In this document: piece after piece, positions 57,827 through 64,000 of the stretch
Layout of the letters: the number at the start of each line of letters is the position of its first letter
How positions within the stretch are numbered: the first letter of the stretch is position 1
Virus record (IMG/VR): IMGVR_UViG_3300014202_000591
Origin: a virus
Reading direction: 5' to 3' (one strand)
Length of the DNA: 64,000 bases
Made by a program: the position numbers and the translations under genes
Notes under the pieces: model-generated
The model's input: the letters and a program-made list of their open reading frames with translations, nothing else
The model's database searches: none
Told to the model about the DNA's origin: nothing

Positions 57827-58864
57827 CTATGCGGCCTCCGTGGTGGCAAATAGCGTTTTCTGACAATTGCGCCTTAATATCAGTTCGCAATATTCGCGGT
57901 TGAGTTCGATCAGAATTGCCCGCCGTCCAAACTTGTTGGCGACTTGGGCGGTCGTCCCACTGCCAGCGAAGGGATCGAGTACGGTTCCGCCTTCGGGACA
58001 TCCGGCGAGGACGCAGGGGGTGATAAGTTCGGGCGGATAGGTGGCGAAGTGGGCTTCGGGATAGGGCTTGGGCGAGACATTCCAGACCGAACGCTTGTTG
58101 CGCATCCCACCGCACTGCTCGGTTTTCTCCATTGCGTCCCATCGGTCATTAAATCCGGCACGGCGGCGCGAATGTCCACGCTGCTTGTCGGTGCGCGGGC
58201 GAATTCCATTAACCTGCGCAGTTGGTGCGCTTTTGTGCGACTTTAAGGCACGTCCAATTCGGTCATCGTCAGCATAAATGGCAGGCTCTTTGATGGCTTC
58301 GACATCGTAGAAATACCTCGCCGCCTTGCTGAGCATGAAAATATATTCGTGGCTTTTCGTGCATCGGTCAGCCACGCTTTCCGGCATCGGGTTTGGCTTC
58401 GCCCAGATAATGTCCTGGCGTAAATACCAACCGTCGGCGCGAAGAGCGAAGGCGAGCATCCACGGAATTCCGATGAGGTCTTTGGGTTTAATGCCAGCCA
58501 TCTTGGCGCGCTTATTTCGGACGGCAAAAGAAGGCACGTCGCCGCTCTCCGTAATCGTATGCTTGCCAGTATTCTGGCCGCCGCCCCATTTGTCGCTGTT
58601 GTTGTAGCTATCCCCAATATTCACCCACAACGTTCCATCGTCCTTCAGCACGCGCCGCACTTCGCGGAACACGTCCACCAGATTGGCAATGAACGCTTCC
58701 GGCGTCGGCTCAAGGCCGATCTGACCATCTACGCCGTAATCGCGCAGGCCGAAATACGGCGGCGACGTGACGCAGCAGTTCACCGATTCGTCCGGCAGTG
58801 CGCGCAATGCAGTCAGCGCATCGCCGTTATGGAGTATTAGCTGTGAATCATGGTGATAGATCAT
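57827..58864 (-). CDS. DNA methyltransferase, N4-C/N6-A beta family (SPPY)
   Basis: CCVTSPPYFGLRDY, HFATYPPEL and VLDPFAGSGTT; start MIYHHD at 58864. Confidence 0.93.
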   Translation of the reverse strand: MIYHHDSQLILHNGDALTALRALPDESVNCCVTSPPYFGLRDYGVDGQIGLEPTPEAFIANLVDVFREVRRVLKDDGTLWVNIGDSYNNSDKWGGGQNTGKHTITESGDVPSFAVRNKRAKMAGIKPKDLIGIPWMLAFALRADGWYLRQDIIWAKPNPMPESVADRCTKSHEYIFMLSKAARYFYDVEAIKEPAIYADDDRIGRALKSHKSAPTAQVNGIRPRTDKQRGHSRRRAGFNDRWDAMEKTEQCGGMRNKRSVWNVSPKPYPEAHFATYPPELITPCVLAGCPEGGTVLDPFAGSGTTAQVANKFGRRAILIELNREYCELILRRNCQKTLFATTEAA

Positions 58865-59036
58865 CTCCCTCCCTCCATCACTACAATCAACGGCCATCGA
58901 GCCGCCTCTTCCCACCCCGCGCGCCACAGCCGGGCAGCATTGGATTTCGGCGCGAACGGGCAGACAGATTCGCCCGCGAGATAATCGGCGCGCCCCATGG
59001 CGTGGATTTGGGCGGGGATGCTGCAATCGGTGATTT

Positions 59037-62015
59037 TCAAGCCGCCACCCCTTTCGCCTTCGCTTTGAATTCCGCCAGTTTCCGCCCAATGGCATCACTG
59101 GCTTCGCCCTTTGTGATCGTTTCCGCATCGTGCGGCACACGCCATTTCTTCAACTTTGCCAATTGATCCTCCGTTGCCGGATCGCGCCGCCACTTCGCGT
59201 CCGTGCCGCCAAAAAACAATGTCTTCGCAAACCCCTCCGCCGCCGCCCGGCATTCCGCCTCGGTGGCGCAAATCGCGCGGAACTCCTGCCCATCGGTGGC
59301 AATCCAGTTGTCGTCGGCCATGGGGCGAACGGTGATGATGCGGTTGCGGATGGTGAGGGTGGAGCGGTGGTTGATGGTGGATTGCCAGGTGAAAGACGGC
59401 TTTGGCTTTGGCTGCGGCATCTCCGCCCCACTAATCAAACTCACCCGCCTCGCCTCAAACTCCGCCTCGATCCGCTCCCGCTCTTCCTGCTCCGCGAGTG
59501 CCGCCGCGCGCTCCCGCTCCCCTTCCGCTGTCAATTCAATCAGTCCCTCGCGCTGCCGGCTGGGCTTTTCCTTGCCCGCCAATGAAGCGAGGTTGACCAG
59601 CTTGTGGCGCTTCGTTACGCCAACCAAATCCATCACCAGGAAGTTCGGCTTCCGGCTCGCCGCAATCGCCGCCAGCCGCTCTTCCGCTGTTTCCAGCCCG
59701 TCAATCACGCCGGGCAGCAATCGAGTGCCGCGCCCCAGCGTTTGCAGATAGCGTGATTTGCTCGCCGTCAGCGTTCCGATCAACAGGCATTCCGTTGTCG
59801 GCGAGTCCCAGCCGGTATTCAGACAGGCGACATTGACCAGCACCTGCAATTGGCCGGATTCATAATCCGCGAGTTTCTTCCGCCGTTCGCCCTTGTCGGT
59901 TTTGCCGTCAATCGCTGCGGCGCGAATCCCGCCCGCGCGCAGGTGGTCGGCAAGTTCCTTGGCCATTTCAACGCGCGGCACGAACATGGCAGTTTTCAGA
60001 TGCCCGGCGTGCGTGCGCCATTGCTCGGTGATGGCCTCTTTCCAGTTGTCGGCGCGGCGAATGAATTCCGCCACTTCGTTCTGATCAACGTCGCCACCGC
60101 GAGAGTGGACGTTGGTGAAGTCCGCGCCTTTGAGGCTGAATTGGAGCGAAATCGGCTCACAGAGCCAGCCTTCGCGGATGCCGTCAATGAGCGACATTTC
60201 GTAGGCGATGTCATCGAAGACTTCATCGAGGCCCCGGCCATCGAGGCGAAAAGGGGTCGCGCTGAGGCCCACCACAAGGGCATCCGGCGCGGCAACGTGT
60301 TCAATGACAGTCTTGTACGCATCAATGTTTAAGTGAGCTTCATCCACGATCACCGTTTGAAATCCGCCCTTTGGCAGCATCGCCAGCCGCTTCGCCTTGC
60401 GAACTGTATGCAGGCTGGCAATGACGATCCGCGCGTTTTTCTGATTCAGCCCCGCCTTGACAATCCCCACCGGGATGCCCGGATTTTCTGCCTGAACCGC
60501 TTTCGCATTTTGAAAAACCACTTCATCAATCGGCGCGAGAAACAGCGCGCGGCCAATCGGGGCGCGGCGCTTGATCAATTGGGATGCGAGGTAGGTATTA
60601 TGAGTAACAGTGAAATCACCGAGCAGAAATAGCCTGTCGCCATCAATTTCAAATCCGTAGTATTCGCCTTCGCCAATTGGCTCAACCTTGATGCCTGTTA
60701 CAAGGTGGTTTTTTATTTGACGCCGTTTTATGGCTCGCTTGCGTGGAATCTTGGACGGGATTTCTGAGGTGTCGCCTGAGATGTAGGCGACCCAGTACAC
60801 CCCAGCCTTGCCGTTATTGCAGCAAGTCTTTTTTCTTGGCTTAACTGACGCAGCGAAGCCTAGCGACCGGGCGATGAATGCAACATCGCTTGTAAGGCGC
60901 TGTGATAACGATACGTATTCAATGCCTGACTGGTCTTGCCCGTGCAGATAGCCATCACTGTCAACTAGCCCCGCCAAAAGTGCCAGTCTGACCTCGCGGC
61001 TGTTTGTTTTATATATCTGAGGAACGTGCTTATTGCCGCTCACGCCAAGACTTCTAAGCTGATCTCCCAGTGACCCCTTGTACTCCTTACGCCGAAGCGT
61101 GGAATAGCAAGGACACCTCCCCTTACAGATTTGCTTTTTTACAATATGCCCTATCCGCGCGGCATGTTCGTGCAGATAGTCAACAATCTCACTATCGGCG
61201 GTCGTAATGTTTGAATTGTGAGAAGTGCCATCGCCAAGCCACAAGCCTAAGAAATAGGGATCAATCGGCACAGCCTGCGCAGGCCATTCAACGCCAGTCC
61301 GCCATCCTTTTGCGCAGTGCTTAAAAGTCTTGTTTTGGCTCAAGTAATCAAGAATTGAAATGTTGACGATTGAACCGGGCAGGTAGCCGGACACCTTTTT
61401 GACGAAGCCGTTTTTCGTGTTGGTTATTTTCAGTGAAAGAATATGGGCCTCGTTGACAATGTACGGATCGCCCTTAACCGGTACTACCTTGTAAAGATTG
61501 TCGCGGCCTTGAGCGGTTGAAAGCACGTTGCGCGGCTGCGAGTCCGGCCCCATCAGCACGTCGCCTGTCTGAACATCCTGCACGGCCTTTACTGTGCCAT
61601 CGAACATCAGAACCGGCGTATCTTTCCCAAGGCACTTGCCCAATCCGGTCGCCTGGGCGATGACGGGGCGCTTGATGCCGCGCGCGAATGCGGCATCAAT
61701 GGCATCGAGGGCGCGGATTTGATATGGGCGGGGGCGTTTTGCTGCGGGCGTGACATTGGCCCTGAAATCCTGTAGGCGATTGCCCTTGGCGTTGTTGCAG
61801 GCGGCGCAAAGCAGTTGCAGATTGGATAGCAGCGATGGCCCGCCCTGTGCCACGGGGTGAATGTGGTCAATCTGCATCTTCCCCGCCGCGCCGCATCGGG
61901 CGCACCGCTCACCATCACGGGCCACCAATAACGAATAGAAAGTGGTGTAGCTGTCGCGGAGTTCGGCGCGAACATCGGCGCGGGCGGAGGTGATGAGGGT
62001 GGAAACAATGCTCAA
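59037..62015 (-). CDS. SF2 (DEAH, ResIII-like) helicase with N-terminal HNH domain and an intein
   Basis: TTG start after GGAGG; CARC...IDHIHP...NLQLLCAACNNAKG; ATGLGK/T; VDEAH; GLSATPFRLDG; LNTGWDSP; QTLGRGTR. Confidence 0.92.
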   Translation of the reverse strand: MSIVSTLITSARADVRAELRDSYTTFYSLLVARDGERCARCGAAGKMQIDHIHPVAQGGPSLLSNLQLLCAACNNAKGNRLQDFRANVTPAAKRPRPYQIRALDAIDAAFARGIKRPVIAQATGLGKCLGKDTPVLMFDGTVKAVQDVQTGDVLMGPDSQPRNVLSTAQGRDNLYKVVPVKGDPYIVNEAHILSLKITNTKNGFVKKVSGYLPGSIVNISILDYLSQNKTFKHCAKGWRTGVEWPAQAVPIDPYFLGLWLGDGTSHNSNITTADSEIVDYLHEHAARIGHIVKKQICKGRCPCYSTLRRKEYKGSLGDQLRSLGVSGNKHVPQIYKTNSREVRLALLAGLVDSDGYLHGQDQSGIEYVSLSQRLTSDVAFIARSLGFAASVKPRKKTCCNNGKAGVYWVAYISGDTSEIPSKIPRKRAIKRRQIKNHLVTGIKVEPIGEGEYYGFEIDGDRLFLLGDFTVTHNTYLASQLIKRRAPIGRALFLAPIDEVVFQNAKAVQAENPGIPVGIVKAGLNQKNARIVIASLHTVRKAKRLAMLPKGGFQTVIVDEAHLNIDAYKTVIEHVAAPDALVVGLSATPFRLDGRGLDEVFDDIAYEMSLIDGIREGWLCEPISLQFSLKGADFTNVHSRGGDVDQNEVAEFIRRADNWKEAITEQWRTHAGHLKTAMFVPRVEMAKELADHLRAGGIRAAAIDGKTDKGERRKKLADYESGQLQVLVNVACLNTGWDSPTTECLLIGTLTASKSRYLQTLGRGTRLLPGVIDGLETAEERLAAIAASRKPNFLVMDLVGVTKRHKLVNLASLAGKEKPSRQREGLIELTAEGERERAAALAEQEERERIEAEFEARRVSLISGAEMPQPKPKPSFTWQSTINHRSTLTIRNRIITVRPMADDNWIATDGQEFRAICATEAECRAAAEGFAKTLFFGGTDAKWRRDPATEDQLAKLKKWRVPHDAETITKGEASDAIGRKLAEFKAKAKGVAA
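60597..61634 (-). mobile_element. Intein (346 aa) with LAGLIDADG homing endonuclease
   Basis: Starts CLGKDTPVLMFDG and ends FLLGDFTVTHN with +1 Thr; YFLGLWLGDG and LLAGLVDSDG motifs; lower GC. Confidence 0.93.
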
Positions 62016-64000
62016 GACGCGGCCTCCTGCTCGGCAATTCGCCGCGCAATCCATTCCACGGTGGGAACGCAGACCGCATTGCCCAACATCCTGTAACGTG
62101 CGCTGTCGCTGATTGGTTTGCCATCGTCGCCGAAGGCAGTCCAGCCGAACTTTGTCCGAACCTCAATCCTGAATGAATTGCCGGTTTGTGTTTTTAAGGG
62201 AATGAACCCACTTATGGCACTTACAACAGAGCAACACGAGGTTATCAATTGCTGTTCTAAGCTCGGCGCACTTGAAGGGCTTGATGTGGTGGACTTCGTA
62301 GGTCTGCTCTGAGTGGTCAAATCTTCGCTGGCATCGCTGACAAGTGGCATCATCGCGCTTCCAGATAGCCTTACAAGCGGCACGCCATTCCTTTGACTTA
62401 TGGAACATGTCCCGCTCGGATGAGATTCCGCCTTGCCATCTTGGGTTATTTGGGCCGCTGTTGAATTGATAAGCACACTCAGGCGAACAAAATCTTCTGG
62501 ACTGATAGACGGGAGACACCAGCTTGCTTTCCCCGCATTGCTGGCAAACCAGAACGACCTTTCTTGACTGCGAATTTCGACTCCGCTCGCCCCGCAAAAG
62601 ATATGCACATCGTTCTGAGCAGGTTTGCTGTCGCTTGGATAGCTTGGCCGTGTATTCAGTGCCGCAGATTTGGCACTTTGATTTTGATTGATTCTTTCGG
62701 CATTCCCAGCAGGTTTTGGCAACTTGGGACTTTGGCTTTCCGCATTTACAAGGCTCTTTAGAAAGTCTAAGCATATCTCTATTATAGCAGCATTCTCGAC
62801 TTCCGGGAATCCCTGCAATCGCTCGCACTCGGTTGGAGTGAGGCGGCGAACGCCGAACTGACCGGCAATCGTTGGCGAATTTCTGCCGGTTGCGTCCCCA
62901 TTGGTGTTTAATGTGTAGGCGATGTCTGACGATCGAACTTCGTCGTTGGCGTTGATCTGCATTGCCATTACGTAGCTTTGCTGCTTCATCCCCGCTTCGG
63001 CGGCCAGAGCTCCGGCAATTTGCCCATCGCCATTGATGTAGCGAACTTCATCGCGGGTGTTTTGGGCGAAGGCGATGGCAGTCACCTGGCCAACGTGTAG
63101 GCAGGAAGTTTTATCAGGATCAGCGCCAAGCGTGGTTTGATTGCCGCCTGCTTGCCAGTTAAAGGCAACCAAGTGTTCGCCCGGTTCCGTTCTGAAGCCG
63201 CCCGTGTTGCCGCCGCTGTTCAGTGTCGCGGCGATCGCCGGAACTAATCCGTCGGCAAACTCAAATCCGCTGTGCGCGTCGCCGTTACTTCTGAGTGTTC
63301 CAGCGATTTCCTGTTCAACGATGTCTCCGGGGAATCCGCAAGTCTGGTTAGCATTAGCTGTAAGAGTTTCGGCAGTTCGCGACCCCGCTTCTCTGCGCGG
63401 CGGAGAATCCCACGCGCTGCCGTTGGGGAGAGGAAATACTTGCTCTCCACACTCGGCTCCAATACTTCGGAGAGAATCACCTGTCTGTTCGGCTTCTGCG
63501 ATGAAATCACCCCACGGCTGAATCCAGGATGATTCTGTAAAAAGAGAGTTACTTGTCTGTCTCGCATAGTTCGTAAATCCCTGCAACGCGGTTAAAGCAG
63601 ATGACCCCGCGCTCCAAAAGGCCGGACAGGAGGTCGGTGAGAGAATGATGAGCTTTGCTATGCTCAGCATCAGTTGCGCACAGGTGAAGATTTTCGATTC
63701 TGTTATCGCGCTTGCGTCCGTTGATGTGATGCACTCGCTCATTGTCAGCAAGCACTCGTCCAAGATGTCGCTCCATAACATCTCGGTGCTCTGCTTTTCT
63801 TCGATACTTACCGTTTGCTTTTGCGATCTTGGTAATCTTGTACCCTCGAAATTCTTTAAGTCCTCCTGAAAATTGCTTCCAAGATGCGATACCAAGTCGT
63901 CTAGCTCTTTGTCTAACGACAGCGGGATCACGGCCAAGTTCTCGCGCAACGTCTGTGCTTGTCCGTCCTCTTGCATTCCGAATAACTTCATCCTCTGCTT
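62012..64000 (-). CDS. C5 DNA cytosine methyltransferase, C-terminal part (5' end outside the window), with two in-frame foreign insertions
   Basis: Motif IX VRRLTPTECERLQGFP and motif X ARYRMLGNAVCVPTVEWIARRI; repetitive TRD-like region; frame open from the window edge. Confidence 0.88.
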   Translation of the reverse strand, partial: KQRMKLFGMQEDGQAQTLRENLAVIPLSLDKELDDLVSHLGSNFQEDLKNFEGTRLPRSQKQTVSIEEKQSTEMLWSDILDECLLTMSECITSTDASAITESKIFTCAQLMLSIAKLIILSPTSCPAFWSAGSSALTALQGFTNYARQTSNSLFTESSWIQPWGDFIAEAEQTGDSLRSIGAECGEQVFPLPNGSAWDSPPRREAGSRTAETLTANANQTCGFPGDIVEQEIAGTLRSNGDAHSGFEFADGLVPAIAATLNSGGNTGGFRTEPGEHLVAFNWQAGGNQTTLGADPDKTSCLHVGQVTAIAFAQNTRDEVRYINGDGQIAGALAAEAGMKQQSYVMAMQINANDEVRSSDIAYTLNTNGDATGRNSPTIAGQFGVRRLTPTECERLQGFPEVENAAIIEICLDFLKSLVNAESQSPKLPKPAGNAERINQNQSAKSAALNTRPSYPSDSKPAQNDVHIFCGASGVEIRSQERSFWFASNAGKASWCLPSISPEDFVRLSVLINSTAAQITQDGKAESHPSGTCSISQRNGVPLVRLSGSAMMPLVSDASEDLTTQSRPTKSTTSSPSSAPSLEQQLITSCCSVVSAISGFIPLKTQTGNSFRIEVRTKFGWTAFGDDGKPISDSARYRMLGNAVCVPTVEWIARRIAEQEAAS
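62163..62774 (-). CDS. HNH endonuclease nested in the -1 frame of the C5 methyltransferase
   Basis: MLRLSKEPCKCG...; zinc fingers CQIC/CSERC and CQQC/CSPEC; GPNNPRWQGG; RDDATCQRC...EVHHIKPF...IDNLVLLCCKCHKWVH; own TGCTATAAT box upstream. Confidence 0.9.
   Translation of the reverse strand: MLRLSKEPCKCGKPKSQVAKTCWECRKNQSKSKCQICGTEYTAKLSKRQQTCSERCAYLLRGERSRNSQSRKVVLVCQQCGESKLVSPVYQSRRFCSPECAYQFNSGPNNPRWQGGISSERDMFHKSKEWRAACKAIWKRDDATCQRCQRRFDHSEQTYEVHHIKPFKCAELRTAIDNLVLLCCKCHKWVHSLKNTNRQFIQD
63549..63998 (-). CDS. Second HNH endonuclease (HNH_3 type with HTH) nested in the -1 frame; 5' end outside the window
   Basis: Manual extension gives AEDEVIRNARGRTSTDVARELGRDPAVVRQRARRLGI...AEHRDVMERHLGRVLADNERVHHINGRKRDNRIENLHLC. 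Confidence 0.88.
   Translation of the reverse strand, partial: AEDEVIRNARGRTSTDVARELGRDPAVVRQRARRLGIASWKQFSGGLKEFRGYKITKIAKANGKYRRKAEHRDVMERHLGRVLADNERVHHINGRKRDNRIENLHLCATDAEHSKAHHSLTDLLSGLLERGVICFNRVAGIYELCETDK

Follow-up and report, generated by a model that had tools for sequence, protein, structure and literature searches.

Out-of-frame HNH endonuclease genes, likely of homing type, in a prophage C5-cytosine methyltransferase gene, and stop-codon avoidance in the overlapping host frame

The IMG/VR virus record IMGVR_UViG_3300014202_000591 was analysed over a stretch of 64,000 nucleotides (nt), hereafter the window, near the end of which a prophage gene for a C5-cytosine methyltransferase (MTase) carries a 654-nt block that encodes an HNH endonuclease (HNH1) in the -1 frame of the MTase and leaves the MTase frame itself open. 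We consider it likely that the 654-nt block represents a mobile HNH gene of homing type, hidden out of frame in the manner of the ShiLan domain of mycobacteriophage methylases, and that the MTase is read through it. A first-pass annotation of this DNA had proposed a homing-type gene that spares its host by the open overlapping frame instead of by splicing, and the proposal is supported in that the frame is open only when the HNH gene is embedded, NTA and NTG codons are avoided, motif X downstream is invariant, and intron and intein features are absent. The same annotation had stated that no named system of this kind was known, which does not hold, because the ShiLan domain and the hidden out-of-frame HNH gene had already been published (PMC9957025, PMC11855218). 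The design is thus known, and HNH1 is, as judged by sequence comparison, a new and widespread lineage of it, to which stop-avoidance statistics and non-MTase controls are now added. The features of the locus that carry the argument are as follows.

62012-64000, minus strand: C5-cytosine MTase gene within the window, its 5' end lying at 64651 beyond the window; PF00145 match and tblastn matches to phage methylases.
62147-62800, minus strand: HNH1 insertion element; its 654 nt (218 codons of the host frame) separate GFPE from GWT, between motifs IX and X.
62163-62774, minus strand: HNH1 gene, zinc-ribbon HNH endonuclease of 203 amino acids (aa), -1 frame of the MTase; ATG at 62774, TGA stop at 62163-62165.
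62781-62789, minus strand: TGCTATAAT, extended -10-like box, a consensus match 6 nt upstream of the HNH1 ATG.
62801-62853, minus strand: motif IX-encoding DNA (RRLTPTECERLQGFPE), conserved and presumed to form the left half of the homing target.

The MTase frame runs uninterrupted from 64651 to its stop at 62012 (879 codons; the part outside the window was seen via locus L001). Motifs I-VIII occupy aa 1-161, the target recognition domain (TRD) and motif IX aa ~415-617, and motif X aa 836-879, and motifs I (F.G.G), IV (PCQ), VI (ENV), VIII (QRRR), IX (RLQGFP) and X (GNAV) are all intact in this single 879-aa frame. Across the block the frame reads ...ECERLQGFPE, then VENAAIIEICLD...SFRIEVRTKF, then GWTAFGDDGKPISDSARYRMLGNAV, with GWTAFGDDG...LGNAV downstream. 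Frame translation thus bore out the earlier description of a 654-nt stop-free block splitting LQGFPE from GWT, the number of stops within the block being 0 in the host frame and 16 in the third frame. The complete 203-aa zinc-finger HNH protein described for the -1 frame was likewise confirmed: it matches the HNH family PF01844 (E=2.1e-10), contains several CxxC pairs, and matches 15 PHROG families, 13 of which (phrog_144 and phrog_1271 among them) are annotated as HNH endonuclease. The open reading frame (ORF) of HNH1 fills 612 of the 654 nt and leaves 26 nt before it and 16 nt after it, or 42 nt in total, close to the earlier estimate of about 40 nt. The host-frame reading of the insert gave no match in Pfam or PHROG. 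The GC content of the insert is 0.485 against 0.57-0.62 for the flanking MTase and 0.573 for the window.

The open host frame is the rule among the relatives of HNH1. Ten homologues with 49-63% identity were found in the protein database, and the DNA was read around eight of them, plus one from IMG/VR; scans of viral contigs gave one relative of HNH1 and none of HNH2, the second endonuclease of this gene described below. Seven of the nine loci (L002, L006, L007, L008, L009, L012 and L013) embed HNH1 in a C5-MTase at the same site, RLQGFPx before and G(W/Y)T after the insert, and in all seven, being the embedded relatives with readable MTase flanks, the host frame of the insert contains 0 stops, while the third frame contains 5-28, over a GC range of 0.33-0.65. 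The measured lengths of the embedded inserts are 654, 645 or 663 nt, always a multiple of 3. Under a null model in which the HNH protein is fixed and its codons are sampled from local usage, the expectation is 2.2-7.4 host-frame stops for each element (window plus six of the seven embedded loci), and the probability of finding none, P(0), is 0.065 for the window and 0.007, 0.002, <0.0002, 0.012, <0.0002 and 0.025 for the six embedded loci. Stop codons are thus depleted in the family against this codon null. The codon choice agrees with this: among the Leu, Val and Ile codons of the window and the six loci, NTA and NTG account for 43/192 (22%) in the HNH genes versus 1445/3128 (46%) in the flanking genes. 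In contrast to the embedded copies, the copy outside an MTase (L010 and L011, with an identical HNH protein) has a stop in the corresponding frame. In the remaining locus, L014, a stop lies in the corresponding frame just upstream of the element, and the contig ends at the HNH stop, so that the context is ambiguous.

The insertion site was fixed by insertion-free homologues. A protein-database search with the simpler MTase of L002 as query gave 36 relatives with an empty site, ERLQGFPD followed directly by (N/G/D)WT, and 19 further MTase ORFs with an insert (218, 190 or 223 aa), the latter being a biased sample in that only open frames get called as long ORFs. Invaded and empty alleles are interleaved among the MTase relatives, a presence/absence polymorphism. 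The 19 invaded MTases are 36-47% identical to that of L002, and the motif X residues G and N do not vary among the 55 sequences (19 invaded plus 36 empty). Since motif X is invariant downstream of the insert, purifying selection acts there, and this needs either read-through or removal of the insert. A shorter insert of 190 codons was observed in seven MTase ORFs (P0271, P0284, P0290, P0294, P0295, P0298 and P0301); it is 28 codons shorter near the 5' end, in frame, and is probably a deletion derivative without the first zinc ribbon.

The HNH proteins are 43-63% identical over ~200 aa in all pairs but one (79%), whereas the host MTases of the HNH1 family give mostly partial local alignments only, with 27-59% identity. 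The identity of the HNH proteins above such patchy MTase alignment, together with a GC content of the insert 8-13 points lower than that of the flanks, fits horizontal spread. In metagenome contigs with unrelated MTases, ~40-50 nt of the motif IX DNA were matched with 3-6 differences, followed by DGWT without an insert. Conserved DNA of this sort is what homing enzymes target, and HNH1 may cleave empty alleles there and home into them.

The host-frame peptide itself shows no sign of selection. The mean pairwise aa identity is 0.55 for the HNH frame, 0.31 for the host frame and 0.30 for the third frame, and the third codon positions of the HNH genes are the least conserved (0.43). Because the host-frame identity is about that of the non-coding third frame, the 218-residue peptide is a by-product constrained only against stops, in agreement with its earlier description as a low-information product. 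A similarity in the host frame between the window MTase and that of mycobacteriophage Yeet was considered as conservation of the peptide and is now taken as a by-product, as similarity of this kind equals the third-frame level in the pairwise tests of the HNH1 family. In an AlphaFold2 model of the L002 MTase, the predicted local distance difference test score (pLDDT) is 85-97 over most of the core and mostly 26-58 over the insert, with two ten-residue strands of higher confidence, one at each end of the insert. The model fits an insert peptide that forms a loosely ordered excursion whose ends may come together.

Candidate start signals were identified in front of the HNH1 genes. The extended -10 box noted upstream of HNH1 is present, and its distance from the ATG is 6 nt counted from the last T, not about 9 nt as first given. 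A TATAAT-like hexamer 6 nt before the ATG was found in five loci, the window, L002, L006, L012 and the GC-rich L013, and is replaced by a GGAGG-like Shine-Dalgarno sequence in three AT-rich loci, L008, L009 and L010. HNH1 may thus be expressed from a leaderless transcript or by internal initiation.

A second HNH gene in the same MTase, unrelated to HNH1, provides an internal control.

63549-64000 in the window (full ORF 63549-64169, 206 aa), minus strand: HNH2 gene, helix-turn-helix (HTH) plus HNH_3 (PF13392, E=2.2e-9), -1 frame of the MTase.

HNH2 lies inside an insertion of ~708 nt after motif VIII (~63461-64168), in which the host frame is again open; the insert is common to the window, to C5-MTases of cluster J mycobacteriophages such as Yeet, and to L019 and L020. 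None of the four embedded copies (those of the window, Yeet, L019 and L020) contains a host-frame stop (P=0.008-0.046), whereas two free-standing relatives contain 3 and 9 stops, as expected by chance, one free-standing relative being located directly upstream of an MTase gene in L021. Taken together, HNH2 supports the same rule as HNH1. In comparison with the uninterrupted MTase P0166, the cluster J C5-MTase with HNH2 (L003, Yeet gp112-114; L004, Thibault gp102-105) shows several frame changes downstream of the insert, and its annotation is split into pieces or given as 'coding region not determined'; the gene is probably decaying in these phages.

The reading that we favor may be put as a sequence of steps. 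The element would have been inserted exactly between the GFP(D/E) and GWT codons, the most conserved DNA of C5-MTase genes. As HNH1 is in the -1 frame, a host-frame stop could arise only from NTA followed by A or G, or NTG followed by A, and selection on codon choice would purge these combinations. Ribosomes translating the MTase would then pass through 218 by-product codons and go on to make motif X, so that the by-product peptide, predicted to be mostly disordered, would hang at the hinge that joins the small domain to the large one, and the MTase would probably be at least partly active. The HNH protein would be translated separately from its own start, in the window probably on a leaderless transcript from the extended -10 box within the first 26 nt, and in AT-rich relatives with a Shine-Dalgarno sequence in place of that box.

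Several observations weigh against this reading. On the window sequence alone the open frame is barely significant (P=0.065-0.20), a synonymous shuffle of HNH1's own codons giving zero host-frame stops in 20% of trials (P=0.20), because a stop requires NTA plus A/G or NTG plus A, and HNH1 has few Leu, Val and Ile residues. In L008 a host-frame stop lies upstream of the element, and the MTase of Yeet is frameshifted downstream of HNH2; some invaded MTase genes are thus, by their sequence, decaying. To the sampling bias of the 19 insert-bearing ORFs is added the size of the burden, as the MTase would have to tolerate 218 residues between motifs IX and X as well as ~236 after motif VIII. A two-hexamer promoter scan did not call the TGCTATAAT box, which makes it a candidate promoter by consensus match only. 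In two RNA-labelled runs the only matches were short identical pieces of the TRD region, and nothing crossed the junctions in spliced or colinear form. The best-matching DNA run of the four runs compared has the same arrangement as the window and could be the sample from which it came. A contig in which 184 other letters take the place of 883 nt was considered as a spliced form and rejected, since it represents a different, HNH2-free MTase ~89% identical in the conserved parts.

Removal of the block at the RNA level is the first alternative to be weighed: a cryptic intron, self-splicing or host-assisted, whose core overlaps the HNH ORF, the open frame being incidental or used otherwise. HNH genes often ride in phage group I introns (discussed in PMC11855218), the conservation of motif X is expected under splicing equally well, and the RNA-labelled runs, with no reads spanning the junctions, leave room for it. 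Rfam cmscan of positions 58000-64000 at E<=10, however, gave two chance matches only and no intron family. With 42 nt outside the ORF and no third-position conservation (0.43) that would point to a conserved RNA core, the earlier judgement that the non-HNH sequence is too short for a group I ribozyme core, unless the core overlaps the ORF, was upheld. No placement of the boundaries yields the exon-terminal U required by a group I intron, and the junction bases vary; a group I intron with a homing endonuclease ORF was rejected on these grounds. Bacterial introns, moreover, usually have early in-frame stops, and splicing needs neither insert lengths in multiples of 3 nor stop avoidance throughout the family, so that we regard an intron as very unlikely. 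Removal at the protein level was rejected as well: in the host frame the first residue of the insert is V, I or T and the last is F, V, L or similar, followed by G (V...F then G in the window), with no Pfam match, and the absence of an intein Cys/Ser start and His-Asn end pointed out before was thus verified.

The frame could also be kept open for a reason other than MTase activity, the MTase being non-functional or unneeded and the open frame serving to avoid premature termination, polarity or lost coupling to the downstream gene. The helicase start overlaps the MTase 3' end (43 nt), the decayed hosts L008 and Yeet still carry open inserts, and the ShiLan-bearing methylase is dispensable (PMC11855218). 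Against these stand the intact catalytic motifs I, IV, VI, VIII, IX and X of the window MTase, the invariance of G and N in motif X across the 19 invaded alleles despite an identity of just 36-47% to the L002 MTase, and the variation of the downstream genes between loci, and this explanation appears unlikely. The least probable in our view is that HNH1 has been domesticated as a methylation-linked nuclease acting with the MTase, for example to shut out unmethylated competitor phages in a restriction-like manner. Such a role would agree with the clear purifying selection on the HNH frame, with the recurrent association with MTases (two unrelated HNH lineages in one gene, plus published cases) and with the free-standing HNH2 relative directly upstream of the MTase gene in L021. 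The patchy presence and absence among close MTase relatives, the position of the insert always at the most conserved DNA of the gene, and its GC content below that of the host are, in contrast, as for a homing element.

Among the known systems the ShiLan domain (Gosselin et al. 2023, PMC9957025; Arsenault, Gosselin and Gogarten, Genes 2025, PMC11855218) is the closest in design. It is a 202-codon insertion in a mycobacteriophage methylase, with no host-frame stops, no intron or intein features, and a zinc-finger HNH in another frame, for which read-through and leaderless translation were proposed on computational evidence (PMC11855218); cytosine methylases, codon usage and promoters are not treated in that study. 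HNH1 shares with ShiLan an insert of ~200 codons at a conserved site of a phage methylase, an open host frame, a zinc-finger HNH nearly filling the insert, the absence of intron and intein features, the patchy distribution and a host-frame peptide predicted to be poorly ordered. The two lineages are distantly related at best: in a tblastn alignment (E=1e-4) spanning HNH1 residues 37-203, the identity with the ShiLan-type HNH of phages such as Violet, HanShotFirst and Optimus is 26%. The host is a C5-cytosine MTase (PF00145) for HNH1 but a DPPY-type N6/N4 methylase in ShiLan, HanShotFirst and Optimus. HNH1 is inserted between motifs IX and X, and the ShiLan site is different. HNH1 is at -1 of its host and the ShiLan HNH at +1, as seen from the translation of HanShotFirst gp60, which rules out one frame common to all hidden HNHs. 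The hosts of the HNH1 family, unlike those of ShiLan, span GC contents of 0.33-0.65 and are not actinophages, and the start signals are an extended -10 box or a Shine-Dalgarno sequence versus the leaderless GTG proposed for ShiLan. We also observed that the ShiLan insert (L015, HanShotFirst gp60; L016, Optimus gp142) follows GSGFPKS and that HNH1 follows LQGFP(D/E), both just past G-F-P codons; this common position may be a coincidence or a shared target preference.

HNH2 in turn resembles the insertion in Pacc40 gp60 (PMC11855218). There, too, a methylase gene hides an HNH-like ORF unrelated to the first case, and Tiff81 and Sashimi have free-standing relatives upstream of their methylases. 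In both cases a second unrelated HNH is hidden and free-standing relatives adjoin methylase genes, but HNH2 is an HNH_3 type with HTH repeats, in another host gene and at another site, after motif VIII.

HNH1 is similar to the HNH enzymes of group I introns (such as I-HmuI of SPO1) and to endonuclease inteins in its highly conserved coding DNA target, its patchy distribution and its homing-type enzyme, but it has no ribozyme or splicing domain, and the host would be spared by translation through the insert instead of by removal of it. Homing genes located in coding genes without an intron or intein are known, for example mobE in nrdA of Aeromonas phage Aeh1 and mobA with the bypass element of T4 gene 60. 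These elements split the host into two polypeptides or need ribosomal bypassing, whereas the host of HNH1 is one continuous ORF.

The MTase gene carries, in addition, a small ORF in its remaining frame.

63244-63567, minus strand: nested small ORF of 107 aa at +1 of the MTase (MRDRQV...ILSEVLE..KYFLSPTAARGILRRAEKRGRELP), starting within the last part of HNH2.

The ATG of this nested ORF lies 16 nt upstream of the HNH2 stop, and the ORF overlaps motif VIII and the linker, with the consensus LS.(V/I)LE..KYFLS.KAC.GILRRAEKRGK.LP..L..AL. Over the ~39 codons after motif VIII the identity is 0.52 in the +1 frame and 0.25 in both the MTase frame and the third frame, and the third positions of the +1 frame are the most variable; by this measure the +1 frame is the selected one there, and the MTase frame is a by-product. 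The nested ORF is present in phage P1 dmt (L017), Pseudomonas phage TC7 (L005), Streptococcus phage Javan112 (L018), Yeet (L003), L012, L019, L020 and the window, and the small protein has 1629 representative relatives. AlphaFold2 confidently predicts a helical core for it. A Foldseek search of this model against PDB gave nothing significant, the best related row being 3me5 (cytosine methylase; 40 columns, 40% identity, E=3.2), and a profile search of PDB sequences gave no match. In the four HNH2-bearing genes, a new Met (MRDRQV...) within the element's 3' tail (63461-63567 in the window) reopens the nested ORF, the tail reading M(R/P)D.Q(V/L)..FL..W.GF.RG.ISS.KP....LS.VLE in the +1 frame (window, L003, L019 and L020). 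It resembles a copy of motif VIII DNA that has diverged and gained a start codon, by which the 5' part of the nested ORF, cut by the insertion, is restored. A precedent is the C5-MTase M.EcoHK31I (PMC2836561), in which the alpha gene contains the coding sequence of the beta chain in a different frame, and the nested ORF is likewise a second polypeptide in another frame on the same strand of a C5-MTase gene. The beta chain of M.EcoHK31I, however, carries motif IX, whereas here motif IX is in the main frame and the nested ORF is 65-110 aa with an LS.(V/I)LE..KYFLS..GILRRAEKRGK.LP module.

A third kind of HNH, with HTH_7 plus HNH, was observed in L012 (1572-2774), a metagenome contig that also carries HNH1. 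It is located at MTase motif IV (PCQ) with repeated IDLICGG flanks, in the +1 frame of the host, and continues stop-free into the nested KYFLS frame to form a 400-aa ORF; its one host-frame stop lies exactly at the 3' junction (GGFP, stop, LCQD). Downstream of the window MTase, the helicase gene (59037-62054, minus strand; 1005 aa) starts with an ATG at 62054 and overlaps the MTase 3' end by the 43 nt mentioned above, also on the minus strand. An HNH domain lies at the N terminus of the helicase, which also contains an intein of LAGLIDADG type (CLGKDTPV...VTHN followed by T, about 60597-61634). With HNH1, HNH2, the helicase HNH domain and the helicase intein, four selfish nuclease modules are thus found inside 5.6 kb.

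A wider interpretation of the MTase gene as a three-frame locus is possible but doubtful. It would hold that the selfish elements are adapted to each frame that they disturb: that two unrelated -1-frame HNHs have been recoded to spare the MTase, that host-frame beta strands encoded by the ends of HNH1 may clasp the insert's ends and so let the MTase fold, and that the HNH2 tail restores a small +1-frame protein, which would be an unrecognised trans-acting subunit of a very large phage C5-MTase family including P1 Dmt.

The comparison of embedded with non-MTase copies gives direct evidence that selection holds the host frame open only inside a gene. Since gene callers give either the long MTase ORF or the HNH, and never both, such loci are mis-annotated, and 'domains of unknown function' of the HNH1-insert type in MTases would be by-products of an overlapping gene. 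The strategy is no oddity of mycobacteriophages, as a single C5-MTase gene harbors it in two unrelated HNH lineages and relatives occur across very different GC contents. Besides introns and inteins, it would represent a third route for a homing endonuclease gene to inhabit a coding gene without destroying it, in which the host translates through it.

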